Assembly: GCA_965655095.1 (NCBI GenBank)
Contig: OZ296649.1
Location: forward strand, 60,822,001 to 60,886,000
Direction of reading: 5' to 3'
Length of the DNA stretch: 64,000 bases
Source: Haplodiscus bocki
Taxonomy: Eukaryota
The translations under genes were made by a program, and so were the position numbers. The first letter of the stretch is position 1. Each line of letters starts with the position of its first letter. The notes beneath the pieces are model-generated. The model saw only the letters and a list, made by a program, of their open reading frames with translations. It did no database searches and was not told the origin of the DNA. Below, piece by piece: positions 841 through 64,000 of this stretch.

Positions 841-1550
841 CGGGAATAATCACTTTGGACAAAAATACCAGAGACAAAATTTTGTTAGAATTTTAGGAGA
901 TTATAATGATGTTTGTTTGAAAAAATTCCTAGGAATAGAGCAAAAACTAGAAAATGCGTTTTTGGTCAAGTTTTCCATTCTTTAGAGAATTTCGTAAATT
1001 TAAGGATTTAAGAATGGAACTTTATTTCATCAATAGATGCCTCTGATGTTTAGGTAACAGCTGATATCATCTGTCGGCGGAAAAAGTTTCAAAAGCTACT
1101 TCAAAACTGTTTTTGAATCTACCATATTTAAAAATCAATGTATTAAAATGGGATGGTAAAATTATACTTTTACTTTTTGCATATTCTTCTGAAAATTCAA
1201 AGTTGTAATAAAAGTGTTAGAGATAAAAGCTCTGGGGAATAACCGAAAACTAACAAATTATGTCATTTGTTTCTTGCTATTTTGCGTCATTGTCAAAATT
1301 TCCTACGAAAACTACCAAAATTAGTCGCTATTCTCTATTTTTGCATAATTTATTTACTCAACTTTGGGACGGAATTTTCCACTTTTTTGAAGTACTCGTT
1401 TTGACCAATGAAATAACCATGTGGTAGCCCTTTTAATGAGCTTTCTCAGAGTACCTTTGTTTACTCTGATTTCCTATTATTTGCTTCTCCACGTAGGATT
1501 TTGTAAAACGGATCAAAATTGCTTAGTCGCATTAATTAAAATCACTACTG
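841..1550. mobile_element. Non-autonomous DNA transposon end (Tc1/mariner-like terminus)
   Basis: Ends ...TTAATTAAAATCACTACTG|TA. Inverted homolog of 63306-64000. Left boundary approximate. Confidence 0.75.
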
Positions 1551-2933: not shown

Positions 2934-3237
2934 CCAGAAATTTCATGCTTGTTAAATCCTCGTAGGTAGCTACTCTATTCCCTGATCCCAGGACGCATTC
3001 AATCTCTTTCCGTATTTCTTCTTGCAACTCGGGGTGAACAGCCAGGTAATAGGTGACCCACATCAAAAGGTTAGAACTTGTGTCAAAGCCTCCCACAATG
3101 AAGATTAATGCTTGGGCTACAGCTGTTTCAAAATCGAAGCCTTCAATACCGTTTGATCGTTGATGAAGCTCAATCATTTCGATCAAAGTTCCAAGAAAAA
3201 ACGATCTTTCGCCGCTCTCTTCCAGTTCTTTTCCATT
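2934..3237 (-). CDS. Cytochrome P450, coding exon 4 (I-helix); later exons apparently lie outside the window
   Basis: Acceptor TTCCAG|AAT (phase 0). AQALIFIVGGFDTSS is the I-helix, followed by YYLAVHPELQEEIRKEI and TYEDLTSMKFL. Donor G|GTACGT. No ExxR or heme-Cys exon found in 1-2933. Confidence 0.92.
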
Positions 3238-5390: not shown

Positions 5391-6559
5391 TGTCAGACCA
5401 ACTGCCGCTACCTGAAGATGAGCTAGCAACTCTAGACGAAGCGGTCTGTTTGTAACGTCTGTTGGATTGCTCGTTCTTAAGTTCTCGCATCAATTCACAA
5501 AGGTGAGCTAATTGTTGCGAGGGAGGGTCAATGACTGCTCTAATCTGTCGATCAACCGCCTCAGACGTTATGGATACGCTTGTAGATGTCTCCATCTTGT
5601 GATCTGACTTCCTTCTTGGAATATTTTCTCTCAAGTTTTCAGTCTCGGTGCTAGTATCTATGTCAGTCTCCACGCTTATAGCCAATTTCATAGATTGGAA
5701 AACGGGTTGAGGTTAAGGTTAATATCTTGCTTGCTAATTTCAGTGAGGTTAATGTTAAAATTAGCAGTACTATTGCAACAAATTCACAGAGGTAAGATTG
5801 ACGAAAATCGGAGCTAATATCGAAGATAATTTCACATTATCGTCATGAGACGATCTGCTTTTTCTGCTGGTCGCAATCGACGTACGGCTTGTTTTGTCGA
5901 TTTCTGCTTGTGGGTGTCCAATTACTTACAGTAATTGGTCACATGTTTTTTGAGTAGGTCAGGTGATCGTGATTCCGGCCCTTGGTTGGCTTCTAATCTT
6001 CAACACCTAATTATACACGACAGTTGATGACGATTATCCCAACTCATTTTTGTGCATATCGTTCACGCAGTTTTTACTACACTTTGATTGGCTCACACTA
6101 ATCACGAAAATTAAACCCCTTTGGTAGCATCTTTGTTTGAAAAAAATGTGACAAATACGGCTGACATCGACTTCACTGACCCAAAAAGCTGATATCACGA
6201 AACGTGTACCGCGATATAATTATAGCTAATTTCCACTCAATGGACTTTTAGTAAAAAGTTGATGCCGGATGCATTTGACGAGGTCGATATATCGTGATTT
6301 GGAAGATTTTCACTGTGGGCACTTCACGAATGTTTTTGTAGCACAGATTTCTTTACTTAAGACATAATTCGCGTTCATGACAAATGGGAGGAAGTAATAT
6401 GACATAATGACTTTCATATCTGTTTGTGATTATAGAGCTGCGTAAGTTCCTTATGTATTAGGTTATGATAAATTGTTTAATGCTTTGTAATATTTGGCAT
6501 AGGCTAATTGCATATTTTTATTTATGTAGAGTGTATATTTCCATCATGCTGGAATGACA
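5391..6559 (-). mobile_element. Solo LTR in CYP intron 3
   Basis: TGTCA...TGACA termini flanked by a perfect 5-bp TSD GACAT (5386-5390 and 6560-6564). Confidence 0.82.
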
Positions 6560-7222
6560 GACATCCAGTTAGTTCTTGATAATGAAAAACTCAGTTTGTA
6601 ATTGTTGAGCGTCTGTCAACGAATCCTCCCCCCCCCCCCTTAAGAAGCCGAATATCTCGAAACTGAAGTTTAGGTGAGTTATTTTCTTTGACCAATATAA
6701 TTCGCATTTGTTCATTTTCCTCAATAGTTTGACTTTTTGAACTCTTTCAGTCAATTTCCTTCACTTCTGATCCGTGAAGCTAAGGGATATGTTATAAGAC
6801 GTCAGGGGAAGCAAAAATTTGAAAGCCACTTTCCGAACCCAGACCGACATTGTGCAACTTAGTGAATACTTGGAAACAGAAAATGAAACAATCGTTCAAT
6901 TCTTGAGCATATAATTCAGCCTCAAGCAATGAAAAGCATTTGTGAACATAAGACAAGTATTTGTCCGGCATGAACACTTCGAATGTTATCGTGAAAATTT
7001 TTGCGACATTCCCTTTCGTGATTAAAATCGAATGATGAATCGATTTTGATTCGATAAACTCGATCAAAATCACTTCATTGCGTTGACAAAAGTGCCGAGA
7101 GAGATTGGAGTAATTATTGGCGGAAGAATTTAACATCACTTTGAGTCGTACCATAGAGAACCAAAGACAAGCACAAAAGTTGAAAAATCCAAAATATAAA
7201 ACCCATAGCTTGTCAAACGTAC

Positions 7223-7420
7223 CTGTAGAATGGATGCTAGTTTCTGACTCACGATTGTGGCAGGGTCCATATTGAAACCCAGAGTGGGATTTATTAGTTG
7301 AAATAGCCTTATCAACCCTGGGAATAGAAAGAACAGAATTATAAGAGGCTTTTGCATTATTTTCTGGTTCTGTTCCGTCATTTTGAAACACGCCTGGGCC
7401 ACTTCGTTTTCTGTATCGGA
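7223..7420 (-). CDS. Cytochrome P450, coding exon 3 (F/G region)
   Basis: Acceptor TTTCAG| and donor CAG|GTACGT. 198 nt, phase 0/0, open frame SDTENEVAQACFKM...LFFLFPGL...ASILQ. Confidence 0.8.
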
Positions 7421-8348
7421 CTGAAACATAAAAAATCCTAGTTGAAGCATCAAAAGTTTTGAACAGCAATGACTTGCGGTCAGTAACATCGCAGAGCTTG
7501 ATGTCTAAACTTTACGGAAAAGCAACCAATTAATTGACAAATTTTATACAACATTGTAACCCTTTCCACTAATAGTTAAAAACCTATTTTGATGGTATGT
7601 CAGACGTCTTCGTTTTACTCGGCGATCTAGTTTGTGGAAAAGTGTGGTGTACTTTACTGGGGTGACTATATACAGTACTCAGTTTTGAAAATCATGGGTA
7701 AACGGAAACCTTTATTAAATTTCAAAAAAGATACGATCCCGGTAGTGAGAAATCAAGGCGTGAGACGACAAGTGGCTTAAGACAGTAAACCATACGGCTG
7801 ATAAAACCCAGAAGACTATAGTTCAACAGTAAAAACTATCAATTTAATTTCAGTATTCCGTAATTTTTTTGGTAATTTACACCCAAATCCAAAACTGGTT
7901 GTCGTTTTTCCTCAAAGAACCCGACTGGAAAATTAATTTCTAAGTATGTGGGAAGGAGACTTCCAGACTTCATGTCCAGCTTCTTCGGCGCACAAGTAGT
8001 ATCATCTTCCGAAGTTTTCTGCTACAATGTTCTCAATCCCATCATGATGCTTTCAGAAGCTTGGAACATACCAACTCCGAACCTACTAAAAGTTTCAGAG
8101 AAAATACAGCTTTGTGCGTATGCTATTTTTATATTCAAAAAACAGTAACCAAAATTTTCTTGACACCTCCTCTGCAAATACCATTCCTTGTCGAAAAAGT
8201 TAGCAACTTAAATTTTGCCCATTAAACCTGCCCTGTCTAGGCAAAAATTTTCGAAAAAGTAATTAGGGCTATGAGTGCAGTCAAAAGAAGTGCTTGATTG
8301 TTTAGTCTCAAAGTAGTTTCGCTTAATGGAAAAAACACTTTTGAAAAC

Positions 8349-8724
8349 CTGTGTGTCAATTTTGAATCCGAATACGACATTGCAAATGACGTCCATTGTA
8401 TAGGCTCGGAAAATGGGCTTGAGCTGAATATTTTCAATTTCTTCACAGGAGAGGGAAGAAAGCTTTCTAGAGAAGTTTGAGGCCACGTCATTCATTACTG
8501 CTACCATTTTCTTCAATTTAGCACCTGTGAATGTGGGCGAAAGAGCACTTCTAGTTCGTCTCCACTCATCGTGCTGCATGATAACAATCATTTTACGCAT
8601 ATATTTGATTGCAGGTGAGGTTCTTGTTCTTCGGTTGGGAAAGACATCAAACTGTTTTATCATCACTTCACGGACAATTTCAGGGTCTGTCACCACCAAA
8701 ACAGGAAGTGATCCTTCGTAAGTC
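8349..8724 (-). CDS. Cytochrome P450 (CYP3 clan), coding exon 2
   Basis: Acceptor TTGTAG|G completes the Gly codon from exon 1. PVLVVTDPEIVREVMIKQFDVFPNR, the C-helix WRRTR, LSPTFTGAKLK and YTMDVI are CYP3-like. Donor CAG|GTTTTC (phase 0). Confidence 0.93.
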
Positions 8725-9149
8725 CTACAATAACGATCGCTATTTAAACTATCAAACGCCATCTACCCAAGGACAGACAATAAATTCAAGAAAAGTAGGG
8801 AATTGTGTTAAATGAACCAGTAATTTCACAGATCCGTTCTATTTATAGCTTTTTTTAGCAGAGTTTTAGCTTCCGAGTGCTAATATTAATATATCCACGT
8901 TATACTAGACAGAATACAAGTAGCATGTAAAGCATTACAGAGAAAAAAATTGTACTACACTAGGTATGTCTGGTATCAGTATAGGTCCCATTCTGTTTTA
9001 GACAATATGATACACATTCCAGTGAAAACACTGATGATAAAAACAAGGTGAAGCTAATGATTGATAAACTAATAATAAGATAATAATTACAAAGTAATAA
9101 TAATTTTAGCCATGCAGGCTACCACGCTCAATGAATCAATTAAAAACTT

Positions 9150-15000: not shown

Positions 15001-15249
15001 GAGTTGGCAATTTTGGTCTGAAAAAACAAAAAGAAAAACGACCCTACTGAATGAATAATTTTTCTTGCATATTACATATGCGGTGAAAAATAATAACAGC
15101 TAAACTAAATGTTTCCACACGCCTCTAATTACATACGTTTTTTGATGTTTTAAAATATTGGTGATATCAAATTAAAATATCACACGTCAAAATATTTACA
15201 GAAAATTACTTTGAACAGAAAAACAGCCGCGAGGCTCAAAAAAATTGGC

Positions 15250-15555
15250 ATCCCACAAAATTTTCGACACTGTGAGACAAAATTGTAATTCACCTCACAA
15301 AATTTTCGACCTGTGAGACAAAATTGTAATTCACCTCACAAAATTTTCGACCTGTGAGACAAAATTGTAATTCACCTTACAAAATTTGCGCCACTGTGAG
15401 AAAAAATTGTTATTCACCTCACAATATTTTCTGCACTGTGAGATAAAATTGCTATTCACCTCACAAAATTTTCAGCACTGTGAGACAAAAATGTGATTGT
15501 CACCACAAAGTTATCGGCACTGTGAGACAAAATTGTAATTCATCGCACAAAAATA
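15250..15555. repeat. Minisatellite, ~41-43 bp unit, ~7 copies
   Basis: CTGTGAGACAAAATTGTAATTCACCTCACAAAATTTTCGAC tandem units. Confidence 0.9.
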
Positions 15556-31250: not shown

Positions 31251-31753
31251 ATAGTCAGCAGTTTTTCAACGCTTCAGGAATCAGCATTTTCCCAACATAA
31301 TGAGTTGTCACCTTTTTCAAAAAGGGGAAAAAAGATGCGAACTAAAATGACAAACTTGAGACTTTTGAAGCAAGTAAAACATATACTTCAAATCCCAAGA
31401 GTAAAGTGATGTTCGCTGTAGCTTGGTGGACTGCGCGAAAGTAAAAACAAAAGAATGGAAGTAAATATTCAGAAGAGTTTATCCTGTTTACTTTACCTAG
31501 CAGCGTTGCTTAGTCGGTCAGTCCTGATAACCTTTGAGAAACGCAGAGAAAGGGAGAAAAGTAAAATCAATAGGTAGTACGTTTCACTTGAATAAAAAGT
31601 CAAAGCTTTTTAGGACAGAAAAAATAGTAGATGCTGGTACGTTGTTTTTATTTAGTATATATTAAATATATAAAGTAAATTTAATAAATAGTGTCTTTTC
31701 AGTTGCTATATGAGGGCAGCCGGGGTGTCCCTTTGTTGATTTATGGTCAATTT

Positions 31754-32358
31754 ATGAGAATTATTGCAGCCAGTTCACTGTCCTCAGCACTACGAACCCT
31801 TTCTTTCAAGGCACAGCAGAGACTGAAGAGGAAAGGACTTATTCTAACAACTATCCCTGGTCTCAATTGCCATGAGGAGACAGCAACACGGTCGAAGTCG
31901 GCTATTTTCTATTTGAAGAAATTCAAAAACGAAGAGGTGATTGTTTGGCACGACGCAATAAATAACTCTTTATCGTCGCACCAGAACAACCACGAACGTC
32001 TCTACTCGGGAAAAGAACTAGCAAATCAATTGAAGCCTTTTTCGAGAAGAATACCTTCAATAATTTACTGTCAAAGAGACGGAACGCCCAATATTTACCA
32101 GGATCTAAAAACAGCAAACTTGCCTGTAGTCAGCATCACCAGACATATCATTTCAAAACGAAAAGAAAAAACAACCAGGACTTCAAAAAGTACCGACCAC
32201 TTCATCAATATACTACCACTGAATTGAAAACCTTCTTTACCGTGCTAAGGCATAAAGGAGCTACGAAGCGGATTAATGGGAAAAAACATCCTAAACATCT
32301 AAACAAGAGAAGAAGGAAAAAGTATAAACTCCTTGCGCCGAGCCAGAACAGCGTCTAG
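31754..32358 (+). pseudogene. SGNH/esterase-like ORF upstream of LINE ORF1 (one frameshift near 32170)
   Basis: Motifs in SGNH block order: IIAASSL, IPGL, VIVWHDAINN, RPLHQ. Ends in a basic tail (NKRRRKKYK). The family call is inference. Confidence 0.5.
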
Positions 32359-32468
32359 CATTGTTGTTAAAGGCTTGGAACTAAGTTGCTGTTTATCTTA
32401 GTGACCTGGTCTTGAGAACTAAGTTACAGGAGAGACAGTTTCGTGGTTTTTGAGCCTTTTCTTTAACT

Positions 32469-33335
32469 ATGTCAAACAGAACAAGGTTACAATCCGCAAC
32501 GGACTCTCTCTCATAATGCCCAACATGCAAAAAAATTCCAGCAAACGAGGAAGATTTTCACTGTTTCACTTGCGGCTGTAGGATGCATCTCAACGGGAAG
32601 TGCCCACAACTTAGTAAAACTGCAATCTTGGGTATAAAAGAGCTCGGCTAAAACGCACTCCTCGTCTGCAACAACTGTGTTACTCTTAGAAAAACTTGAC
32701 AAGCCAATTGAAACCGCATCCAAAATTCAACAGCAGGCGCCAATTAAAGATAAAAAGTTCAAGTCGCTACAAACTGAAAAGAACGATATTAAGAAAGGGA
32801 TAACTGACCTGAAAATTTCTTTCGTGCAAAAGTCAAGTGAACCTCCTAAACCATGTGCTTCAATCATCAAGACAACAAACACCGCAAAGGAATTTGACGG
32901 GATAAGAATACGAGGTCTTCAGGAAAATGATGCTGAGAGTGCTAGAGAAAGAAACGAGAAAGATATGAGTGAAGTAAAAGCTATGCTGAAAATTCTAGAA
33001 ATAGACAGCAAAATCACCGAACTACGAGGAATAGGACATCAACACGTAAACCGTAATAGAAAACTAAGGTTTGAAGTCGAAATAAATGGCATCGAAATCT
33101 CATCTTGCTCTCAGTCGCGAAACTAAAAAATTACAGCCAACAGGTCTTTGTAAGCAGAGAACTTAATGCTACAGAACCGAAACTCGAGACGGAAATTCTC
33201 AAAAGGAGGAAGGAGATAATAGAAAATGGGAACAATCGGACGCATTTTAGAATACGTGACCTAAAATTATCTAAACAAATAGGAGAAATTTGGCAAGAAG
33301 TAGAAACAGGCAAAAAAGAAAATTCGGGAAATTGA
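32469..33335 (+). pseudogene. LINE ORF1 with PHD finger, coiled coil and RRM-like region
   Basis: CPTC...CFTC...H.NGKC...CNNC forms a C4HC3 pattern. Later IRIRGLQE and VFVSRELN are typical of CR1-group ORF1. Contains stops and frameshifts. Confidence 0.8.
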
Positions 33336-33958
33336 CTTACCGCTCCAGCAGTACAAAACGACCCATTCATTCTTCTCTACAATATTTGGAGCTTGATTGA
33401 TCTAAGTAAGCGAATAAGTCTATCCAATGCAATTTCAATAAGTGATTACTATGACCTCTACTTAGAGAAAACTTGGCTAGTAAGTGCAATCCCCGACACC
33501 GCATTATTTTTAAATAGCTACTCTATACATAGAAACGACAGACTCTCAACTGACGCTAAAAGCAAGCACTGGGGCGTACTAATAGCTGTAATATCGCGCA
33601 TTCGACACACCGGAAATCGCATTGATCCAATGTACTTAGAAACAGTGACAGTAAAAACATCTTGACATGAAGTTGATTATTTTATTTGTTGTGTCTACTG
33701 TGCGCCAAAACCAAGCCAGTACCGAATTCCACCGCAACTAATGATTGATTTGATAGACTTGGTCATAGCCGAGTCAAAAAAACACCGTACTCATCGTGGG
33801 TGATTTAAACTTTGAAAACACAAATTGGAAGCAAATACGATCAACTGACTACAGCGAAGCTCTCGTTGTAAAAAAATTTTTCGAAAACAGTTTCAAAGAA
33901 GCAATAACTACTAAGAGGAAGCTACTGGACGTTATTCTCAAAATAACACTAACCCCGT

Positions 33959-35789
33959 TTTCGCGCGGGTGGTAGATTGTTTTGGTTCAAATTTTTATTG
34001 ACAGATACTTGTCACTTTCTTGATGTGGGGCCGTTTCTGATTAATCAAACTTAAGTCTCAAAGTTGCCTTGCCGGCCCGCGTGAACAAAGTAGAGCGTGA
34101 ATTCGCTGGCAAAGACTTAGTGAATAGCTATGGAGTGGTTGAAAGCTTTTTTAGGATTTTATTAATAGCAAGCAGTTTTAATATATAAACCAAGAAAGTT
34201 TTGGCTTCAAATCTAATATTTGTACTGTCAAACGTGGTTGATAGTTAACAGAGGGAACGGTATTGGTTTAGGCATATAAGATTTGGTTGAAATTTCAATC
34301 TATTCCAAAATCATTCGAAGTAAGGAAGTCAGCAACTTTATCACTTTGGAGCTGTTTGAACTAGATTATAAACACCAAACAGTTTTATTCGAGAATGACA
34401 ACTCAAATTTTTTCAACTATATTTTAAGGAAAATATTGTTGCACGCGCTTTTAATTGTCACGAAAGTAAAATACTAAATTGACGGTAGCTCCACTAAACA
34501 AAAGTAATACCTTTTCTAACCTTGTAGGAGATGAATTGCCATTGAGCACCATCAATTTGCTTTAAATCTGTTCTAGAACGGAGAGTAAGTTTATCCGTCT
34601 TTTCTATTAGTTCATTTTAAAAGTGTTCCTCTAGGTCAGTTTTAGCTGAGATTAAGTAATTCGCGTAACGAATCAACCTAGCGAGTTTTCTTAGGCCAGT
34701 ACATAGTTGTTAACCCGTAGAAAAAAATCTAGGGATTTTGTGACCGCTGGCTCAGTTCCGATCAGAAGATTTAGGTTAGTAACTAAGACACGGTAACTCT
34801 CTTTATGGCGTAGCAACCGTGCGATTCCTCTTAGGTTCAGGCAATTACCATCGGATAAAACCAATGAGCCTGATTCTGATCGTCACTGGGTTAGTAATTA
34901 TTTTCATCTAAGACTCAGCATCATTTCACTTCAATGGAGGAAGCCAACAAAGGCACAACCCCAATTGGAAGGACCACCGAGCAATTTTTCCTAGGTATGG
35001 GGAAGTTTCAGTGAGCCCTTGTTCGGAGCAATTTCCATGGCAACTCTTAATCAGAGTATCTGCTGACGGACCCGTTCTTAATTAACTAAGTGTTCTGGCG
35101 AGATGTACTCTACCAGGGTTAGTCATTTTAGATACTAACAATTTATTTGGTTTAATTAAAATAGAGTTGCTGTTGATGGCCCTAATTGGTCCCTCTTCAC
35201 AAAACAATTAATTTCTTCATATTTTTCGAATAGTTGAGAATAGTTAGGTCGGTCTCGGATTCGAAATGTTCAAAATTTGAAGATATTTGAAGTTTGGTAA
35301 ATTTCCAATTCGGAGAGACTTTAGAATTTCAGGAGGAGAGAGTTGAAAGTTTTTTGTAGTTTTCGGTTTCAGAGTTGGTACTTGTCCGTAAGCGATCAGA
35401 AAAGTTATGGTTTCTCGTGTTGGCGGCAATTTTTCCGAGCTCTCGTACTTTTCAAGGTGATGACCAAATACGGTAAGCCTTCCGCCAAGTAGCACCAAAA
35501 ATGGTGATCCTCCAAAAAGTGTCAAAAATTGAAATCTTAGTAAGCAAGGTGTGCCGTTGGTTAAGCAATAAAATCGAACTCCGAGAACAGTGGGGTAACA
35601 AATAGAAAAGCATCGTTGATATCCGTCTGAGGCAAGGCAACGAAATTTTGAAATTTCAAAGTGCAATTCCAACTTTGTTACCGCTCTCCAACAACTCACC
35701 GTTCAAACGGTAAGTTACTATTATTACTTCTATTATGTCATTTCTATTTTTAGAACCAGCACACTTTAGCGTTATGGCCTGTTTAGCGT
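33959..35789 (-). repeat. 3' LTR of the gypsy element (inner end truncated)
   Basis: Colinear with 42714-44552. Homology stops after GTTTAGCGT, so the last ~16 nt seen in the other LTR are missing. Confidence 0.9.
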
Positions 35790-35809
35790 CAACTCACCCC
35801 ACTGGCAAG

Positions 35810-36270
35810 TTATTGAAAATGATTGGGGGTCTTTACGGAAAAGGAAAAAGAAGAGAAGACTGGGTAGGTAGTATGGGGGTCAGAAAAAGAAATCTCTATA
35901 TGAATAGTGTCATTATACAGGTAGCCAACAGTCTCATTGAAAAGTTTCGAATGTGGGAACAAGTAAGGGTATCGTACTGATGGTACGGTCCAATATTCAG
36001 TTGATGTTTGTTTAGTTAATTCTTGCGACTCGATTGTCTGGCTCCAGGTATTAAGGGGATACAGTTGGTCACGCACTTTGATTTCTCTAGCCTTTGAGAC
36101 CGGCCAAGAATGAACGTCATCGTATTCAACAGCGGATATAGGAAGACAGATAGAAGCCCATGTTCCGATGGCAGCGGCGAATCCATATGGGTGAAAATTT
36201 AAATAAAAGTTGAAGCCATATGGGTGAGAGCGCAAGATAGGGCTGCGAAGTCGGGTGGTTGGAGCATTTT
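35810..36270 (-). CDS. TRAF-type MATH domain ORF inside the retrotransposon (N-terminus missing or degenerate)
   Basis: SPILRSHPYGFNFYLNFHPYG...GTWASI...EYDDVHSWP...IKVRDQ...YLYNDTIHIEI parallels the TRAF-C consensus SPPFYTxxYGYK...LxLNGxG...GTHLS...EYDxLLxWPF...LLDQ...YxxDDTIFI. Confidence 0.8.
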
Positions 36271-36406
36271 GACAATGAAGTTGACAATGAAGTGATAAAT
36301 TGACGGATTAAAGACAAGGATTGAATGCGGGTAAACAGCGAGGTAATGTCCGTTGTCAATGTGCTTTGGGTGCTATTCCCTTTGTTTCTTCCTGTGTTGT
36401 TATAGG

Positions 36407-36862
36407 ATGGCACAACCCCCTGAGATCGTCGTGGAGGTGGTAGGGTGGGATGGGTTTGACCCTCTCCCGGAGCTCCTGCTCTTCCACTCCACGGCGGAAG
36501 ATTCGTTCGGCGGCTCCCTGTATATCTTCAGGGAGCCCGCCATTTTTTGGTTGGAAGGTTGGAAGGCCTTCATGAGGTTTCACCGGTGCAATGATGAAGC
36601 GCCAGTGCAAGAGGCCCCTGTGTTGGCGAGGTTCCGGAGCTTCCTGGTCCAATATTACGGAGAAAACTAGGAAGCGATGGTCTTGTCCGAATCCGGCGAG
36701 TTGCTATTGTTCGACTTGCGGGCAATCCTCGCCGGGTGGCTCGGCCTCGTGGTGGAGCAGAGGGAGGAGTTCGCTTTGGCCATAGACAACTGGCCGCAGA
36801 TTGTCTTCCGGGCGCGGGTTAGGTCCTTGGCGGAAACCGGGGGCTTCCTATGCCTGGACTGA
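36407..36862 (+). pseudogene. Antisense accessory ORF of the gypsy element (151 codons, one internal TAG), unknown function
   Basis: ORF-track entries 36353-36670 and 36677-36862 are in the same frame, separated by a single TAG. GC-rich. A pyrimidine tract and TAG|G immediately precede the ATG. Confidence 0.6.
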
Positions 36863-36901
36863 GCGACTCCTGTCCTATCCTCCCCCGTCAGTTTAGTCGT
36901 C

Positions 36902-37159
36902 TTATGCCTGTACTAATCCTCTGCGTGGGAAGTATTCAGTTGTATTGGGATTGCACATTTCACAATTTGTGAGAGGATTACATTGTAAAATTAAAAACTC
37001 GTTGAATTTACCATCTGTTGCCTCGGGTAGAACGGTTGAAATTGCTGGGGAAGAATGAAGACAAGATGGTGTAGAATGAAGAAAAGTAAGAAAGTCGTCC
37101 ATAATTGGATCGAAGTGTTGAAGAGAATAGTAACACAAAATTTGATATAGGTTTGCCAT
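36902..37159 (-). CDS. Small sense-strand accessory ORF (85 aa), unknown function
   Basis: GCCATGG start context. MANLYQILCYY...QCNPLTNCEMCNP. Stops ~40 nt from the stop codon of the convergent antisense ORF. Confidence 0.35.
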   Translation of the reverse strand: MANLYQILCYYSLQHFDPIMDDFLTFLHSTPSCLHSSPAISTVLPEATDGKFNEFLILQCNPLTNCEMCNPNTTEYFPRRGLVQA

Positions 37160-37475
37160 GGCAGGGGAATTAAAGTTAACTTGAACATTACTTTCGCGCT
37201 TTAGATCCCGTTTAAGTCTAGGTTTGAGTAGAGTTGTAAAAGACACACGGACGATGTGTGTTGAATAACTCCAGTAAACTCCAGTAAACTTCAGTTAAAA
37301 GTACTGTGTCAATTGCCAGGTTAGGCCAACAGTGGGTAACCGTCCACTGGCAGTTAGGGTAGAATTTGTGACATTTAGGCATTTTGTACTAAGTATAAGG
37401 AGTGAGAAAGTGGGTAGTGAATTTCTGAAGAACAAGACTGTAGGCTAATAGTGAGCAACAGTGAATTGTTGTTTA

Positions 37476-39200
37476 TTAGACTTTAAAACCCTGGCGAGTG
37501 AAGGTACGAAGAACCGATTGAGAATTAGGATCATGTGGCTGAGGTCTAAAACAATTTGGTTCTCTCGCTTTGGACTTTAGACTGTTCCGCAGAAATTGTT
37601 GAATCGGAGTAAGTGGTGTGGTTGGAGCCGAAGTTGACGGCTGTTGAATCTCCGTCTCCTGTGGATGTTGTGGTAGTTTTTCAGGAGTAATGTGTAGGAT
37701 TGGCGAAAAAACTTGAGGTGAGCCAACTCCCGAATCACTGCTAGTGATGCTATCACGTTTGTATGAAGCGTCTACCGAAGCCGTAGGTAACGATCTGATT
37801 GGAAATGGAATGGGGGTCTGCTGCGAGTGGCTCAGTAAAGCTGTTCAATTTCCCAATTCTTTGTTCCAAGAACCGTTCATAAAAATCATCATGTCGTTGG
37901 TCGTGTGGTATACATTCTTCAGTTATGGCTAGAAGTGATTCCTCTTTCGGATAAAATTCCATCAAATGGTTACGGTGAACTGTCTTTGTGATGTATGGGT
38001 CTTTGTGGTCTCGAATTTGGTAGGTAGTGCCAGTTACACGTTTGGTAACAGTGAAAGGACCCAAACGTCGTTGTTGTAGTTTTTGGTTTTTTGATAGGGC
38101 TTGCCGGTGGTTTTCGTAAAAAACTTTCTGACCGACGTCTAATTGGTAACCCAAATTAATTATCTTTCTGCATGCGTGGGAACGCGCTGTTTGTTCTCGG
38201 GATCGTTCAAAGGTGGAAGAGTAAATTCGTTTAAAATCCCTTTCTCGATCTAACAAAACCTGCGAAACTTGTGGACGAAGTAATGCCTGAAGAAGCTCAT
38301 TCTCCGTAGAGTTCTCGTCGTGAGTATGAGGAGGCAAGTCGGTACAGAATTCTGAACAACATAAATTATGTTTGTTACGATAAAGTCCCAGTTTGACAGA
38401 CAATGGAATCTGGGGTTTGGCACCAAAGACGATTTCGTAAAACGTCTTAACAGTAGTGTAATTTACGCTAGTATTGTGCGCGAAGGCAAACTCTGGTGCG
38501 AGAGGAGCCCAATTAGTTCCAGCAACATTCAGAAACTTTCTCAAATAACAAGCAATATGCTGGTTCTGACTCTCCACCTTGCCGTTTGTCCAAAGTGATT
38601 GAGCTGCACGTGGTCGGAGGATAATTCCCAACTCCTTAGTCCAGTTGGCGAATACTGTGTTAAAAAAAGCAGTTCCTCTATCACGCGTTTTTGACTAGGG
38701 GATTCCAAAACGAAGTATCCATTTTTCAGCCGCTGCGATTGTAGTTTCAGCTCCAGTATTGGTAACAGGATAGACCATTAAAAACCGTGAAAAAGAAACA
38801 ACTATCAAAAGACAGTTAGTATTTCGGTTGCTCGGTGAATGGAGAGGTCCTTTATGGTCAATATGTATCGTGCAAAATGGTGCGGTATCACCTTGCCATT
38901 CTTCCAGTGGTACCTCGTTAAGACTTTTAGGTTAAGGTTTATTGTTCTGGCATGCGAGACAGTCAGCTGTTAAAGCGCAGGTCCAGTCGAACATATCTGG
39001 CCAATAATAAAACCGTACGTCTTGTCCGGTACTTACTTAGTGTCAGCGTACGTCTTTGAAGCTCCCATGTGTCCACCTAGCTCGGTATAGTGTCCCATTC
39101 TAGAGCAGGCTAAGAAGAGTGATAAATGTAAACAGATTCGTATGGTCCTTTCACCTAATGTGTCAGATGGTTCATCATAACACAGGAGTTGTCTGTGTTC
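37476..39200 (-). pseudogene. gypsy integrase, disrupted
   Basis: Zn-finger remnants (HMG, CLACQ), IDHKGPL, DRGTAF, NGKVESQN, AFAHNTSVN and a GPF/Y module (RLGPFTV). Confidence 0.9.
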
Positions 39201-39478
39201 TTCTATGAGAAGTCGATCTAGCTCTTGACCGTATCTGAAAAAACCTTTAGACTGTCGGATTTTTGGAGCTCTGAGGTCGGGAGAGGTATTTTTTTCAATC
39301 CAAGAGCGGACAATACTCAGTACTGCGTCTTAGAGTTGCTCTTGTAATATGGTAGAAACATCCAGATAGACAACTTTTGCTACGTCATCCAGCTTGGTGA
39401 TCAAATCGTGAGTTCTCAAACGAGGAGCGGCCGCAGTTGATAGTAACTTTTTTGCTAGGAGGGTATCAGGATTACTGA

Positions 39479-40640
39479 TTACCAACTCAGGAGCTGCTCG
39501 AGCATTGCATAGCCGGTAGTGATCTGATCGTTGGCGTTGATCTCACAAACATGGTCATCTTCCTCTTCGTCAATATCACATTCTTCGTGAACTATTCGTT
39601 CAGCGTATGAAGAACGTCCAGGTTCCTCGTTACCGTCCGTCTCAATTACTATGGTAGAATTGTAAGTTCCAGTGGAGCTTTCAGATGGTGAAAATGATAC
39701 TGGAAATCTTAGTCGGCATAACCTTCGGAACTGGTTGATAGTCCGTCCCATTCGGAAGCAATCTGCAGCTAACTGTACTGAGGAAATGGCAAAATGAGTG
39801 CTAAGGCTGTTAAGGGAAAAATTTTCGCCATCATTATGCAATCGGAGTATCTTCTGTTCCTTGCCTTGTTGGCAACGGATGGGATAAAGGTCCTTACACG
39901 TTTCAGCGGCGGTTTCGTCGTGGTTAATGTTGAACGTAATCTGTTGTCCATGTTCATCAAAAAAATCGATGTCTCGTGGTAGCTTCCTGTGCTGTAGCTG
40001 GTGATGTTGATATTCACCAATGGTCACGTTCCGACTAAGTATATCAGGGAAAGCCAGGTTAGATCCTGGCCTCCAGATGATCATCAAAATCTGGAACCTC
40101 GTTTTTATTACCTGATATCGAAAGAAGCGGTGAGATAGTTGTCCCATGCGTCTCCATAAGGAGAAGTTGGGTTTATGGTCACAATACGAGTTTATTGGAA
40201 AAGGAGGTCCAATAATGTAATGCTCGTAAGTTTGTAACGCTGAGACAATCCCACACAATTCCCTGTGGAGTGTAAACATCTTCTGTTCTGCTTTATCAAA
40301 AGTACGACAATTGAAGGCGATGATCCGCTTGCCTTCCCGGAATGGTTGTATTAGAATTCTTCCGGTTCCAACGTTAGACGAATCCACGTGAATATGGAAA
40401 GGATACTCAGTAGATGGGATGGTGAGGACTGTATCTTCACTAATCTTGTCTTTTCTCATTTGGAAAGTCTTCTCGTGCTCTTCAGTCCAATGGAATGAAG
40501 TAGAATCTCTAATGAGATCATAGAAAAGTTTGCTGTCTACGTGAAGATTTTTGATGTAGCAGCTGTAGAATCCAAGACATCCCAGCACTTTCATAACGTC
40601 TCGCTTACACTCGGATGATTAAGGATTTTTTAGGACCTTG
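39479..40640 (-). pseudogene. gypsy pol: RT connection and RNase H (protease and RT core absent)
   Basis: LGCLGFYSCYI, FHWTEEH, IHVDSSNVGTG, RELCGIV, YCDHKP, NLAFPDILSR. Confidence 0.9.
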
Positions 40641-40949
40641 ACCTCTCCAGGTGAGTACTTCCAACATCTGGCGCTTTCAGCGTCAATGTGCATAGTGTGA
40701 GGTAATCGGACCGTTAGAATTCGAGAAACGTAAGGAAATGTTTTATTTTGGTGAAGACTTCCATAACAAAAGGTTTTTGGAGGCTGCCGTAGCTCAATTC
40801 TAGGTAAGTCGAAATGAATTCAGGAAGTCTGGTTCTGACAGAAGTCCATCTTGAGGAAGTTTCAAGTTTTCATTTCGGTAGCCCAGACATTTAAAGGAAA
40901 TGAACATTCACCATTAGCGTCGTAACTGAACTCTATACTAGCGTAACCG

Positions 40950-41991
40950 ATCATCGGTACTACTAGTTGAACTTTGGTCTGTTCCTCATCCTTGAGGATG
41001 TTCTAAGAGACTCAGTAACTCACATCTCTTTGGATGATTCTTGTGGAGAAATCGTTCCAAGTTGCGTTTGGATGTTCCATCAGGTACTCTTGAGCTTTTC
41101 GTTGTAGGTAACTTGGACGAAGTCCTTGTGGAGTATAGTCAATATATCGTTTTCTTCTTTGTCTCCCTTGAGCTTGACGTTCTGCAGCTCTATCTGCTTC
41201 TGCAATACCTTCCATATCATCGGGCCATCCTCTGTCAACAATTATCTTCATTCGATGTAGAAATTTTCTGATCTCTTCTGCATCGCCTGGCACACAGTGT
41301 TCTACTTCCATTCCATGTCGGAAATTGTTTCGTCCATCAGAAAATCCTGTTATGAACTGCTCCCGTGTGGCCGCCCAAGTGGTGGCATTCTCAATATTCT
41401 TTTCGTACCATTCTGCTGCTGGTCCTTGCAGTAGAGTAGAGAAAAGTGCCTTTTTGCGGAAGGTATAACTAACCAAATCATCAAGATCCGCATGTCCATC
41501 ACCTAATGCGAAGTTGAGTTTTCTTTCTATGAGTTGGACGAAAGATTCAGCGTCTTGATCCGGGTCAGTGCCAGAGAACTTGTCTAAGGCCAAGTCGGGG
41601 TATGCGAGATGAGTTTTAGCTTAATTGTAGTTCAATCAAATTTGTAGGACAGGTGGTCCATTAATACACCATAGACGTGAAGTCGAATTTCGGTTAAGTG
41701 GGGTTCTGGAAATTCACAGTAATTCAGCAGTGCTGTTGCTAGAGATTTAGACAATGGATCGAGTTGATCTATGTTTAACAATTGAGAAGCTTTCGGATTC
41801 CCTTGTTGGTGAATTTTCACACGGATCCAAAAGTCGTAATTGGAAGTCCACTTCAGGTATATGATATTAACGGTGATACTTTCGTTGTTTGTAGTGATGG
41901 TCCAAGGCCAGTTGAAATGTTGTATTTCGTCAAATCCGTCGTCATGGAGAGCATTCCAAACGACTGGGTTTGGGTTGGCCGGATGTGGCAT
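40950..41991 (-). pseudogene. gypsy gag (N-terminal extension plus retrotransposon-gag domain), disrupted
   Basis: LDKFSGTDPDQDAESF...LQGPAAEWY...TWAATREQFITGF. The upstream ORF 41632-41991 joins it through a TGA and a frameshift. Confidence 0.8.
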
Positions 41992-42693
41992 TCAAATATT
42001 TTCGTTGAGTTCGTTAATGAGTTGCAGTAGCTACACTACAGATAAAAAAAAATCCGGGTCCCAAAAGTAGATTAAGAATTGCAAGAGATAGGGAGTACAA
42101 GATTAAGATCAATTTTTGTCTCATCTAGAGAAATTAAGATAAGATAGTACAAAAAGATTTGAGTTTTATTGAATTCCTGCGGTCCGCGTTAACGAAACAG
42201 TCTCATTGGACGTTACCCAGAGAAGATGGATCCGTAGTTTTGTAGGAAATTGTGTCCCAAGTTGCAAAGAAGAGTTGAAACAAAATGCCGTTAAAATCGC
42301 GTTGTTTGATGAGCAGGATAGGTAAGTCGTCGTTCACCAATCATTAAGAATCACAGTCCTGTCCACCTATAGTTCGTTCCAAACGTATTGCAGCGAAAGG
42401 ATAAAGCAAAAGGAGTGCCACTATCGTGAAAGAGAAAAAACAGAGAGCCACAATCAAGTCACGTCTCATGCGCGGTGACTCATGTTAAATTCGTACGTGA
42501 TCACTTGGAGAAATCCGGTGTCAATTTAAAATATTCAGTGTCACTAGCACCAAGAAAAAAGATCCAACAGTGATTATATAGTTTACAGTTAAGAAAAAGA
42601 CCAAAAATGAAAATAACAGGCCAGGAGGAAGTAGCACAAAAGAATTAAAAAACTCGTAAACTTCACTCATAGCATCATCACAAAAAAAATGTG

Positions 42694-42710
42694 CCTCACT
42701 GGTCACACCA
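42694..42710 (-). promoter_or_regulatory. Primer-binding site (PBS)
   Basis: TGGTGTGACCAGTGAGG lies 3 nt inside the 5' LTR end on the minus strand. Its complement ends in ...ACCA like a tRNA 3' end; the tRNA identity was not determined. Confidence 0.8.
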
Positions 42711-42713
42711 GTT

Positions 42714-44568
42714 TGTCGCGCAGGTGGTAGATTTTTTTGGTTCAAATTTATATTGACAAATGCTTGTTATATTTCTTGATGTGCCGCCGTTACTGATTAA
42801 ACAAACTTAAGTCTCAAAGTTGCCTTGCCGGCCCGCGTGAACAAAGTGGAGCTTGAATTCGCTGGCCAGGACTTAGTGAGTAGCTATGGAGTGGTTGAAA
42901 GATTTGTTAAGGATTTATTCATAGCAAACAGTTCTATTATATAAATCGAGAAAGTAATGGCTTCAAATCTAGTACTTGTAATGTCAGACGTGGTTGACAG
43001 TTAACAGAGGGAACGGTACTGGTTTAGGTATATAAGATCTGGATCAAATTTCACTCTATTCCAATATTACTCGAAGTAAGGAAGTTAGCAACTTTACCAC
43101 TTTGGAGTTGTTTGTAGTAGATTACAAACACCCAACAGTTTTATTCCAAAATGACAATTCAAATTTTTTGAACTATATTTTAAGGAAAATATTGTTGCAA
43201 GCGCTTTTAATTGTCGCGAAAGTAAAATACTAAATTGACGGTAGCTCCAGTAAACAAAAGTAATACCTTTTCTAACCTTGTAGGAGATGAGTTGCCATTG
43301 AGCTCCATCAATTTGCTTTAAGTCTGTTCTAGAACGGAGAGTAAGTTTATCCGTTTTTCTAGTAGTTCATTTTAAAAGTGTTCCTCTAAGTCACTTTTAG
43401 CTAAGACTAGGTAATTCGCGTAACGAATCAACCAAGCGATTTTTGTTAGGCCAGCACATAGTTGTCAAGCCGTAGAGTAAAATCTAGGGATTTTTTGACC
43501 GCTGGCTCAGTTCCGATCAGAAGGTTCGGGTTAGTAAGTAAGACAGGGCATCTCGCTTTATGGCGTAGCAACCGTGAGATTCCTCCTAGGTTCAGACAAT
43601 TACCATCGGATAACGAATGAACCTGATTCTGATCGAAACTGGGTTAGTAAGTAATTTTATTTAGGACTCAGCATCATTTCATTTTAATGGAGGCTGCCAA
43701 TAAAGGTACAACCCCAAACGGAAGGACTACTGAGCGATAACTCTTAGGTAACGGAAAGTTTTAATGAACTCTTGTTCAGAGCAATTTCCGTGGCAACTCT
43801 TATTCAGAGTATCTGCTGACCGACCCTCTCTGACTTAACTAAGTGTTCTGGCGAGATGTTCTCTACCAGGGTTAGTCAATTTAGATACTAATAATTTATT
43901 TGATTTAATTAAAATAGAGTTGCTGTTGATGGCCCTTATTGGTCCCTCTTCACAAAAGAATTAATTTCCTGATATTTTTTGATTAGTTGAGAATAGTTGG
44001 GTCGGTCTCGGATTCGAAATGTTCAGAATTTGAAGATATTTGAAGTTTGGTAAATTTTCAATTCGGAGAGACTTTAGAATTTCAGGAGGAGAGAGTTGAA
44101 ATTTTTGTAGTTTTCGATCTCAGAGTTGGTAATTGTCGGTAGGTGATCAGAAATGTTATGGTTTCTCGTGTTGGCGGCCGGCGCTTAATTTTTCCGAGGT
44201 CTCGTACTTTTCAAGGTGAAGACCAAGTACGGTAAGCCTTCCGCCAAGGAGCACCAAAACTGGTGATCCTCCAAATGGTGTCAAAAATTGAAATCTTAGG
44301 AAGCAAGGAGTGCCGTTCGTTAAGCAATAAAATCAAACCCAGAGAACAGGGGGGTAACAAATACAAAAAAGCATCGTTGATATCCGTCTGAGGCAAGGCA
44401 ACAAAAATTTGAAGTTTCAAGTTGTGCAATTCCAACTTTGTTACCGCTCTCCAACAACTTTCCTTTCAAACGGTAAGTTACTACTATTACTTCTATTATG
44501 TCATTTCTACTTTTAGAACTAACTTTGTTTAGCGTTATGGCTTGTTTAGCGTTGTGTCTAACGAGACA
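42714..44568 (-). repeat. 5' LTR of the gypsy element
   Basis: Begins TGTCGCG and ends CGAGACA on the + strand. Colinear with 33959-35789. Confidence 0.9.
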
Positions 44569-46560
44569 ATGTTTTGAACGTTTCTGTTGATAAAAGAGTG
44601 AAGGCCTTTTATAAGTCCGATCACCTGCCATATCGGATGAAGTTTTGAGGACAAAGTTGGTACCGAGCAGAATTCAAACGGGAGGAATCCAAGAAAAACG
44701 ATTTCACAGTCCTTTCTTACACACGAGTTGATTTGGTCTCTTTATCTACCCACATCGAAGAAAATCATTTTGTCCGATATTGCCCCAGCAATGTTGATAT
44801 GATGGTTTCGCTGTGGAATGAATGGCTATACAAATGTTTTCAATCTCACATCCCAACGAAGACAAGACATCGAATGAGCCTTGCTCTCTGGGTATCAAAT
44901 GAAACCTCCAATCTCCTTAAAAGGAAACAAACGCTTCAGATGGCACTTCAAAAACAAGCCAATGACAATCGTCAGAGGAAATTAGAGGCGCTGAATGGAA
45001 GAACACTTCTATCTCTGGAGACTGATCAACGTTACTTCGAAATTACCGTTTTTGCCGGTCGAAAGTTCTCAGATAATCAAAAACATTTCAAGAGCATCAA
45101 GAAGACTACACAGTTCCTTGCAGAAAACTTCCTGGAAAATGGAATTGCCACAACAGATCTGGAAAACGCTGAGCTTTTCAACATCATTGCGCAATCTGTC
45201 TTCACTTCAACTGACTAACAAAGCAAACCAGAACTCAAATCACCAAAGAAAACTCAGAAATTGCATTTCACCCAATCCGAAATAAAACCTGCTCTTGAGA
45301 ACCTCGATGGTGGCAAAGCAAAACGTCCCGATGGGCTAGGAAAGCTACCACCCAAAAAACTCACTGTGCAAACCATTATCACTAGTCCTCAACACAATTG
45401 CAGATAAACGTGCATATACAATTTTCTGGAAAACCAGCGAAGGCTTACTCTTCTTCAAAGACGGCGATAAACAAAACGTAGCTAATTACCGCTTCATCTC
45501 TCTTCTCTCCTGCACTTCAAAACTTCTAGAGACTTAATTCTCTGGAAAACTCTATGAAGTAATCAAAGACATAATTGCCCCCGAACAATACGGCTTCCGC
45601 AAAAACCGATCGTCCATCACGCAGATGATATTGTATATGAGTGAATTTTTTAACATTCTCGTTTCGACAACCTTAGCAACCATGTACTTGGACTTTGAAA
45701 AAACCTTCGACGAGGTCTCCGATGGAAAATTATTAGAAAAATTGACAAACGAAGGCATCAGAGGAGTTGTGCTGGAACTAATCGAAAGCGATCTGAAAGG
45801 AAGAAAGCAGAAAGTTAAAATTGGATCATTTGTATCGAATGAACTTGTTGTGCAAAGTGGAATCCCACAAGGATTTGTACTTGGACCTTTTTTTTATCCT
45901 TTTATTTAACGATCTTCCAAAATGTTTCATGTCAACATGCTTGGGATATGCGGATGACTATAAGATTGTAGCAAAAAATGGGATAACACTTCAAATTGAC
46001 GCCCACAAGATATGGAAATGGTGCTCCAGCAATCTCGTGAGTCTTAATCTGAAAAAATGTAAAATTCTGTGTTTGAAAGGTTCAGCAAAAGTCACTATAC
46101 AAGGTCATCATTTTGAAAACAATATCGTTGAAAAAGATCTGGGCATCTTGATCTCAAACGATTTAACCTGGACAGCACACACAGAAAGGAGATGCGAAAA
46201 AACCGTGAAAGCATTTTTCACCATCAAACGAAACCTTGCCGATGGGACACCCTGGACAACTAGAAAGAATCTATACCGTAGCTACATTGTACCAATATTA
46301 TCTTATGTTGCAGTCCTTTGGAAACCCAGTAAAACAGACTTGAAATCGATCGAATCAAATCAAAGCAAGCAAATGGATACTGGGAACTAGTCAGCTAGAA
46401 TACAAGGAGCGATTACGACGGATTAATTACCCCTTGCTTTGTACCAGGAAATGCATGTCTTACTGTTGTTCAAACAAATTGTCTTGAATACGTACGACTT
46501 TGAATGGCGAAAGTGGTCAACAAAGTTGAACGGTTTTCACATTGCAGAACCAGTCGAGGC
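44569..46560 (+). mobile_element. CR1/L2-type LINE, 3' part (end of endonuclease and reverse transcriptase), disrupted
   Basis: KSDHLP, NYRFISLLS, QYGFRK, YLDFEKTFDEV, SGIPQGFVLGP, YADDYK, EKDLGI. Confidence 0.92.
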
Positions 46561-61530: not shown

Positions 61531-62830
61531 TTTTTCTTCCAAAAATCAGAAAAATCTTGAAATAGGTGACGAAATATTGAGCTTCGAACAAAATTATTGA
61601 GCTAAAAATGGAGCAGGAAGATAAAATATAGGTGCTAAAAGTAAGCGCAAGTGATTCGACACTTCATGCACACGTATGGCGCCTTTGAAGCTGTTCAATT
61701 CTGAGTGAACGAAGGTATTGAAAGAATGTCTGTCAAAGAGTTTAGGCTAAAAGCGGTGCTTCTGAGAACAAACGCTTCTGTGAACGATTTCCAATAAGTT
61801 CAAAAGTTTGTAGGCTTTCGCTGTTTCTTTGAGCCCTTTTCTGCAATACCCTATTGTAACATTAGTTGTGAAGAGTACAGTTATTATTCTTCACATCAGA
61901 TTAAGTAAGCAAATTGTAACTTCAACATCCATCCATCCATGGTCATTGGCTGAAATATATTTCGGCTGATGATTTAGAGCGGAAAAATGACAGCATGAAT
62001 AATTTGATCTTAGTGATGGAGACATACTTCGCAGGAAGCTTCAGTTAGTATATATGAAGTTCTGGAAAGTTAATAGGGCTTAAGAATGACGGCACATAAA
62101 CAAACAAAACTTTGCATTACGGATTTTTTGTGATACCCCCACCATTAAAAAGGCGAAGATGCGATGATCCGGTGTCTCCAAATTCTGGGCACCCTAACAG
62201 TCTGTGAAAGTTATATGGTTTTTTGCTTGCAGTTAATTTGGTAGAAAAAATCTTTTTTCGCACGTTTATATCATAGTTTAACCTAAAAATAGGCAATACT
62301 GATTTTTTGAGTTATACTCGAGATAAAAACATTGCAGCAGTTGCGGCATTTATAATTGCTCGGACTTTAGAACACAATTATATGAAAGAGCACGGACCAA
62401 TAACGCACCAAACTACCACAGCAATTGCATGACCTTCCCAGAAAAGCCTATGTTTGCTTAGCCCCAGGTAACTTGATACCTTGATGAAACCACATTGCAG
62501 AAAATAACTCATAACTCGATATAGTCTGATGTTTATAACTCATAACTCGACTTAAACTCGGTTATTTACTCCGGCGCGAAAAAACAGAAAAATTTTAACC
62601 ATCCGAAAGTTTTTGATGTTCTTGATGGAAAATCAAAAATCCTCAAATAATTCAGTAAAAGGTCTCGAACGTTGAAAATTTGTCAAAATGTTACGCAAAG
62701 AAAAACCTTTCTCCGGTCGCCTAAAACAATCCCAATCTGCAGAGTTCTACCTATGCTGAAAAGTTATCGAAAATGTAAGTTCTAATATTTTCATAATTTA
62801 CACCTTATGGAGGTTCAAATTTTGTTTCAG

Positions 62831-63189
62831 TATGCTATTACACCCTGTGCCTGTGACGAATTTTTCTTTTTCTTTTGGAATGTTGACTTTCGCTCTTCTC
62901 ACCGAAAGCACTACACTTGCCTTAGCCTATAAACATTTACGTGCCAATGCGAAAGCCGAAGGACAAAACATATTCACTTACATTTCACGAAGCAATGATC
63001 CAGCCGTCAATGTCATCTTCTGCGAGGATGCTGCAGCTGTCTTCGGAATATTTATTGCCGGTGGGACTATGGCTTTAACGTCAGTCACGGGGTCTCCTCT
63101 CTGGGATGCTTTTGGATCCATTGCAGTGGGCACGTTGTTGGCACTTGTTTCGGGATACATCGTCAATACAAATGCCAGAGTTTTACTCG
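62831..63189 (+). CDS. SLC30A9: Zinc transporter ZnT9 exon (TM4-TM6); gene continues beyond the window
   Basis: TTTCAG|T completes the Ser codon. Contains DPAVNVIFCEDAAAVFG and WDAFGSIAVGTLL. Donor near G|GTTGGT; the end is approximate. Confidence 0.92.
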
Positions 63190-63305
63190 GTTGGTTTGTC
63201 AAATTGATCAATTTGAGGTTTCATCGATATCGAAGGAGAATGTATTCGACATTATTGGGACATGCTTTGATCTTTTTTTCGAGACATTCGAAAAGTCAAG
63301 TTGTA

Positions 63306-64000
63306 CAGTAGTGATTTTAATTAATGCGACTAAGCAATTTTGATACGCTTTACAAAATCCTAAGTAGAGAAGTAAATAATAGGAGATTAGAGTAAACAAA
63401 GTTACTCTGAGAAAGCTCATTAAAAGGGCTGCCACATGGTTATTTCATTTGCCAAAACAAGTACTTCAAAAGATGTAGAAACTCGCGTCCCAAAGTTAAG
63501 TAAATAAACTATGCAAGCATTGCGAATATTGACTAATTTTGGCAGTTTTCCTAAAAAATCTTGACAATGACGCCAAATAGCAAGAAACAAATTACATAAT
63601 TTGTTAGTTTTGGTTATTCCCCAGAGCTTTTATCTTTAACACTTTTTGCACAACTTTGAATTTTCAGAAGAAATTGCAAAAAGTAAAAGTCTAATTTTAA
63701 CATCCTATTTTAATACATTGATTTCCAAATTTAGTAGATTCAAGATGAATTTTGGAATAGTTTTTGAAAACTTTTCTGCCGACAGATGATATCAGCTGTC
63801 GCAGAAACATCAGAGGCATCTATTGATGAAGTAAAATTCCATTATTAATTTTTTAAAGTTACGAAATTCTCGAAAGAATCGAAATTTTGGCCAAAAACAC
63901 ATTTTCTAGTTTTGTCTCTATTCTTTGGAAATTTTTTCGAACAAACACCGTTATAATCTCCTAAAATTTCTAAGAATTTGTTTTGTCTTGCTATAGATTA
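63306..64000. mobile_element. Same DNA-transposon family in the opposite orientation, runs off the window
   Basis: TA|CAGTAGTGATTTTAATTAA start. Colinear with the reverse complement of ~860-1550. Confidence 0.8.

Follow-up and report, generated by a model that had tools for sequence, protein, structure and literature searches.

A TRAF gene carried behind env in a family of Ty3/gypsy elements of the acoel Haplodiscus bocki

Background

Most cases of gene capture by retrotransposons amount to one odd domain, for which the donor is missing and the function untested. The closest described case is Burro/GYPSM1, a group of giant planarian gypsy elements that are reported to carry MATH_TRAF_C and env homology (PMC6431247). 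According to that description, these LTR elements encode a polyprotein of ~5,000 aa in which env stands between gag and pol; they also have BIR, BCL2-like and ankyrin motifs and, upstream, an accessory TRAF ORF, and in Dugesia tigrina the domain occupies an accessory ORF of its own. A virus-encoded TRAF homologue has also been described, ORF111L of ISKNV, a large DNA virus of fish, and its action on host signalling has been tested (TRADD binding, caspase 8; PMC3352826).

Envelope genes of the gB type are described as widespread in Ty3/gypsy elements (PMC13524379). These errantiviruses have gag, pol and env between LTRs, and an env of class III type (PF24664) with a signal peptide and one transmembrane stretch. 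The text of the survey gave no match to TRAF, MATH, macro or acoel, and none of six acoel names occurs in its 7 supplements.

The TRAF coiled coil is reported to mediate both homo- and hetero-oligomerisation, and mammalian TRAF1, which has one zinc finger, a coiled coil and a TRAF-C domain and no RING, is described as a heterotrimer partner of other TRAFs (PMC6305416). The RING-less TRAF1 resembles a dominant negative, yet can enhance signalling in heterotrimers, according to the same source. The acoels are a different setting. Their genomes are described as LTR-rich, with 30% of genes trans-spliced (PMC9911081), and proteome searches are reported to have found TLR, MyD88, IRAK and NF-kB absent from these animals (PMC12849515).

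Here we analyse a stretch of 64,000 nucleotides from the acoel Haplodiscus bocki, referred to as the window, and the gypsy family to which an element within it belongs. Like Burro, this is a gypsy LTR family with env homology and a TRAF-C domain; unlike Burro, its elements are ~18 kb, have separate gag, pol and env ORFs, and carry as their last gene a TRAF that groups with an acoel host family. Compared by description, the captures in Burro and in acoels would appear to be independent. With the gB-type errantiviruses the acoel family shares LTRs, the gag-pol-env order and an env that matches PF24664; about eight accessory ORFs and a macro domain are its own additions. TRAF capture by a gypsy element or a virus is thus already known from Burro and ISKNV; what is new is an acoel env-bearing family with TRAF behind env. 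The literature searched, with few subscription papers in it and Repbase/Dfam outside it, holds no description of this family.

Results

A dead copy in the window

The gypsy copy in the window is dead and internally deleted, and belongs to an env-bearing family. It is a minus-strand element at 33959-44568, a ~10.6-kb deletion derivative of far larger relatives (Table 1). Against its nearest fetched relative, L130/L131, which is 86-87% identical, the copy has three internal deletions of ~1.0 kb (gag/protease), 1.8 kb (macro/RT) and 4.8 kb. The largest took out three small ORFs, env, a 208-codon ORF and the 5' half of the TRAF gene, and at its junction at 36270 the contigs of three of four runs go on into other sequence. 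A target-site duplication (TSD) is not recognisable at this copy (2/4 bases agree). Degenerate LINE-like fragments flank the element on both sides, and a non-LTR element may have been its insertion site.

Table 1. Features of the window (positions are those of the whole stretch)
Feature	Position	Strand	Basis or remark
5' LTR	42714..44568	-	~1.85 kb, TG...CA; 89.4% identity to 3' LTR
Primer-binding-site-like TGG-starting stretch after 5' LTR	42693..42710	-	also in relatives
119-aa accessory ORF before gag, open	41632..41991	-	no Pfam match; family shared-variant dN/dS 0.23
gag, 5' part; then ~1.0-kb deletion	40964..41620	-	Retrotrans_gag E=1.6e-4, below cut-off; deletion map
Protease fragment; then ~1.8-kb deletion (macro and RT sequence)	40644..40963	-	alignment to relatives
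RNase H, tether, integrase; stops and frameshifts	37479..40643	-	RT_RNaseH_2 E=1e-22; Integrase_p58_C E=7e-6
Small accessory ORF (138-codon type), broken	36998..37424	-	comparison with relatives
Antisense accessory ORF, broken	36348..36859	+	family shared-variant dN/dS 0.31
~4.8-kb deletion junction	36270..36276		alignment to loci L130/L131
TRAF-C/MATH remnant, without start, coiled coil and strand 1	35875..36270	-	Pfam; alignment to complete copies
Polypurine-tract position ahead of 3' LTR	35792..35804	-	motif common to relatives
3' LTR	33959..35791	-	89.4% identity to 5' LTR
Degenerate LINE-like fragments	31688..33665 and 44649..46390	+	RVT_1 E=1.5e-5 on right
Cytochrome P450 exons	2914..8762	-	PF00067
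Cation-efflux transporter exons	62760..63311	+	PF01545
630-bp repeat, inverted, at both window ends	920..1555 and 63301..63936
42-bp tandem array	15216..15550

The initial annotation had placed an open frame with TRAF-type MATH motifs between integrase and the 3' LTR, in the sense of the element, and this placement was confirmed. The quoted motifs are present in the stop-to-stop frame 35810-36307 (minus strand, 165 codons), which matches MATH_2 (PF22486, E=3.2e-10) and TRAF-mep_MATH (E=8e-7), both above cut-off. The start ATG and the strand-1 WK motif (WKI) are missing, as had been noticed, because the ~4.8-kb deletion ends at 36270. The stop-free frame had also been read as a sign of retention. 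At the stop rate of the other codons of this copy (7/1504), however, a frame of this length would be free of stops by chance with P=0.55; in-frame homology covers only ~130 of its codons, a small deletion breaks the frame near 35875, and the changes private to the remnant are neutral (11 non-synonymous, 4 synonymous). The open frame in the window is therefore no evidence of retention, and it was rejected as a sign of selection.

Layout and number of the complete elements

Complete elements are ~18.3 kb, with the order LTR, 119-aa ORF, gag, pol, small ORFs, env, 208-codon ORF, TRAF, LTR. By Pfam positions in L036 and L038, pol runs from protease through a weak macro match to RT, RNase H and integrase, and several small ORFs, one of them antisense, lie between pol and env. 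The env product is 724 aa in length and matches PF24664 (Monjiviricetes_fusion) with E=4.7e-41; its hydrophobic peaks at 8-26 and 618-636 are a signal peptide and one transmembrane stretch, and it has no match among PDB sequences at E<=1. TRAF, of 308 aa, is the last gene before the 3' LTR. The proposal that the MATH domain sits in the env position, in place of env, was rejected, as the family has a true env upstream of TRAF which the window copy has lost by deletion.

How regularly does TRAF travel with these elements? In a genome search, 150 matches of 3,868 candidates were scored. Subfamily A was sampled at 30 of these loci, 20 chosen for long open frames and 10 from the top scorers, and 29 of these were usable. 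The 208-codon ORF was present in 29/29, at least 78% of env in 28/29, pol upstream in 27/29 and an LTR pair (88.5-99.8% identical) in 25/29. Fifteen of the loci had readable termini, with a perfect 4-bp TSD at 10, one mismatch at 4 and none at 1. The reciprocal test began from 20 integrase matches, chosen by eye from the top of the list because no TRAF match had been listed for them. Of these, 15 had 82% or more of the TRAF ORF and 2 had remnants; one had a deletion through TRAF and two were truncated before env. Family searches give at least hundreds of copies with long open frames.

In subfamily A a conserved splice acceptor, read by eye, is found before env and before the 208-codon ORF, and none before TRAF; branch-point/acceptor-like motifs lie ahead of the same two ORFs. 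In subfamily B (L095, L097, L099) the TRAF start follows directly on the stop of the 208-type ORF (TGA ATG), which suggests coupled translation.

Other genes of the family were also surveyed. Pfam gave no match for the 208-codon ORF or for six other small ORFs, Atlas gave none for the 208-codon ORF, and no Pfam match to BIR, BCL2-like or ankyrin domains was found in the 13 ORFs scanned. The pol of complete elements contains a macro (ADP-ribose) domain, placed between protease and RT (L036:5324-7375; Pfam E=5e-4, below cut-off; shared-variant dN/dS 0.21). An unrelated gypsy (L088:3-3998) also carries a macro domain (E=3e-5), here flanked by RNase H and integrase, and several long ORFs follow. 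Seven accessory ORFs, one antisense (L035:976-3302 and 5797-6420; window 41632-41991), have shared-variant dN/dS of 0.22-0.41, and subfamily B has three copies of the 119-aa ORF. In a tandem array at C4:103366660-103397725 (L028, L029), units of ~1.8 kb each contain a TRAF ORF; there are at least 16, mostly stop-free. This array is a local amplification and could be a candidate for host co-option.

Subfamilies and selection

There are at least four subfamilies (A, B, C and D/E) with the same layout, and the order env-208-TRAF-LTR was found in all fetched members of B (4/4), C (4/4) and D/E (6/6). Further genome searches gave at least 150 (PF21355), 98 (P0166) and 105 (P0180) more candidates, which may overlap. 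L091/L092 were considered as a third subfamily and rejected, since they belong to B, of which one copy is without gag and most of pol. Non-autonomous D/E copies (L170, L172, L178; 3/6) have no pol, but their LTRs and part of gag remain, and their env and TRAF frames are open. Identity between subfamilies is 90-97% in RT, 63-98% in env and 36-48% in TRAF-C (81% for D/E), and the other accessory ORFs diverge about as fast as TRAF (about 30-65% identity). RT and env trees have B splitting first, with the remainder too poorly resolved to compare with the TRAF tree.

Variants were sorted column by column into three classes (private, present in two copies, shared by at least three), by simple site counts with no tree model. 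Across the 29 A loci, shared-variant dN/dS was 0.19 in MATH (44 non-synonymous, 98 synonymous, 0 stops), 0.19 in the coiled coil, 0.14 in gag, 0.04 in RT and 0.12 in env. The LTR and leader controls gave 1.13 and 1.39, shifted-frame controls 1.45-4.17, and private variants 0.97-1.59. In 27 loci chosen by score alone (2 duplicates left out), MATH had 0.29 for shared vs 1.22 for private variants (Fisher p=8e-10), and in 26 B loci 0.22 vs 1.03 (Fisher p=1e-8); the LTR controls in these two sets were 1.08. Over all sets the shifted frames gave 1.11-4.24. Shared variants are constrained and private ones neutral, and selection is therefore placed during element replication and not on inserted copies. 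Judged by these counts, the TRAF gene is kept by purifying selection across elements and decays after insertion. Functional retention, which failed for the window copy, thus holds for the family (shared-variant dN/dS 0.19-0.29, LTR controls 1.08-1.13). The other accessory ORFs have shared-variant dN/dS of 0.22-0.41. As all of them are constrained and equally divergent, TRAF is not singled out.

These results bear on the suggestion that TRAF is a neutral passenger ORF, or that the elements multiply useful TRAF genes for the host, the latter having been raised by the initial annotation. The hundreds of copies with long open frames would fit such a role. Against it, shared variants are under strong constraint and private ones evolve neutrally (1.0-1.6; Fisher p=8e-10 and 1e-8), and stops and deletions build up after insertion, as inserted copies decay neutrally. 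This explanation is largely refuted and we regard it as most improbable.

Probable donor and origin

Two host TRAF loci were found on C5, with no gag, pol or env match within 30 kb. Both genes are interrupted ahead of the last strand by a GT-AG intron (349 and 186 nt) at a shared position, and the element TRAFs, like spliced relatives, read straight across this junction. An upstream zinc-finger exon was found by motif at one of the two genes only, and a zf-TRAF search of the genome gave 7 matches, none of them near either gene. A FPL..K..QYLH motif is common to the two host genes and subfamilies B and D/E. A RefSeq protein of Convolutriloba macropyga is a homologue at 74% identity, which points to an acoel as the likely host. 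Inspection by eye shows one zinc finger in this protein, and Pfam detects no RING.

In a tree of 33 TRAF rows, 14 of them from elements, the element rows form one clade (100/100), which groups with the acoel host family and four relatives (89/90). They stand beside the host family and not inside it, on a long branch with 28-37% identity. The TRAF was likely captured once from a host TRAF mRNA, as far as tree and gene structure indicate; a single capture through RNA would be the simplest reading, and its RNA-level step is our inference. The earlier claim that the family captured a host TRAF is backed by copy context, tree, intron loss and dN/dS.

Two acoel-type TRAF family members, P0212 and P0187, lie on short contigs and have a Pro/Thr-rich start. 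For P0212, which looks intron-less, neither a copy family nor any match in G000 at E<=1e-40 was found. The two could come from elements of another species, or be no more than transcripts.

The TRAF protein and its possible partners

The complete element TRAF consists of a coiled coil and a TRAF-C domain (PF21355, E=5e-17). Its best PDB sequence matches are TRAF5 (E=6e-12), in an alignment that begins at residue 105, and TRAF1 (E=1e-11). The AlphaFold model, of modest confidence (pLDDT 64), has long helices at 28-81 and 87-135, and Foldseek with this model returns TRAF5/TRAF1 at E=5e-10. Profile and structure thus agree with the MATH/TRAF-C assignment first made from the window. The idea that the coiled coil had been left behind was rejected, since complete copies carry one. 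A RING was also said to have been left behind. None is found in the element protein, and Pfam gives no RING or zinc finger of the TRAF2-6 type in A, B, C or D proteins; that part of the claim stands, but the annotated member of the donor family is already without RING, and the element therefore did not make a dominant negative by RING removal.

The strand-7 glycine of the peptide groove was present in 0/66 readable element records (94 examined), in 14/14 host-family rows and in 101/138 other aligned stretches. By alignment to TRAF1, we take this column to be the region of TRAF6 G470/G472. Strand 7 also differs between element subfamilies. TRAF6 is reported to bind peptides by backbone bonds at G470/G472 (bioRxiv 2022.05.08.491058), and because strand-7 peptide contacts are backbone bonds the loss of the glycine does not by itself imply a closed groove. 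Constraint on the coiled coil, where oligomerisation takes place, equals that on MATH (0.19), while the glycine is lost. Like mammalian TRAF1, the element protein has a coiled coil and TRAF-C and no RING, and a heterotrimeric partnership is proposed for it likewise; unlike TRAF1, which is described as a host gene with a zinc finger and an intact strand-7 motif, it has no zinc finger, introns or glycine.

A predicted complex of two host chains and one element chain scored 0.60 vs 0.36 for the best control, a weak result in which the host chain is a stand-in from a relative. The score mark was reached by 51/78 solved pairs and 2/108 mismatched pairs; at 0.60 or below it was reached by only 5/78 solved pairs and by all 4 mismatches that passed. 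The runs agree in at least 92% of contacts, and partner pLDDT is at least 78. The score may reflect likeness or memory, because TRAF trimers have already been solved.

Discussion

What might the element gain from a TRAF? On balance, we favour interference with host signalling by co-assembly with host TRAF trimers, to which the constrained coiled coil and, weakly, the complex model point. The TRAF ORF would be expressed from a subgenomic RNA, its product would join host TRAF trimers through the coiled coil, and the mixed trimers would alter or dampen a host stress, death or defence signal in favour of the element. The signal is probably not NF-kB. The link to NF-kB signalling drawn initially is doubtful, because acoels are reported to be without NF-kB and the Toll pathway (PMC12849515). 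A Rel/NF-kB family search of G000 gave 0 matches, as did the control search, and is hence uninformative.

The protein might instead be a homotrimeric adaptor in the element's own cycle, connecting env, Gag or accessory proteins to host trafficking or budding and leaving host TRAF unpoisoned. TRAF travels with env, including in the 3/6 D/E copies that have no pol and keep env and TRAF open; strand 7 varies between subfamilies, as expected of new element-specific partners; and in another system a TRAF-like protein is reported to coordinate ESCRT (PMC10181826). Against this, the complex prediction gives a weak preference to host TRAF, and no TRAF-binding motif is evident in the env tail. We consider such an adaptor unlikely.

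Alternatively, could the protein activate signalling and not block it? It would then recruit host effectors for survival or division of the carrier cell (stem or germline), or for its death and the release of particles. TRAF1 heterotrimers are described as enhancing signalling (PMC6305416), ISKNV ORF111L is reported to bind TRADD and induce apoptosis (PMC3352826), Burro is described as having BIR and BCL2-like motifs along with MATH (PMC6431247), and there is one TNFR cysteine-repeat match in G000. The element protein, however, is without RING or zinc finger, and its receptor-facing strand diverges fast, and we judge activation to be quite unlikely.

Conclusions

Returning to interference with host trimers as the favoured reading, a wider and distinctly more tentative possibility is that a TRAF that poisons host trimers in an enveloped acoel family might mark a TRAF-dependent antiviral or cell-death pathway, with the macro and accessory genes as further counter-defences. 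In this family a donor family, a lost intron, a single origin and purifying selection over four subfamilies and hundreds of copies are visible together. If the protein targets host TRAF, it would be a pointer to defence in acoels, animals reportedly without Toll and NF-kB, and it would suggest recurrent TRAF capture in the enveloped gypsy elements of regenerating worms, the planarian Burro among them.
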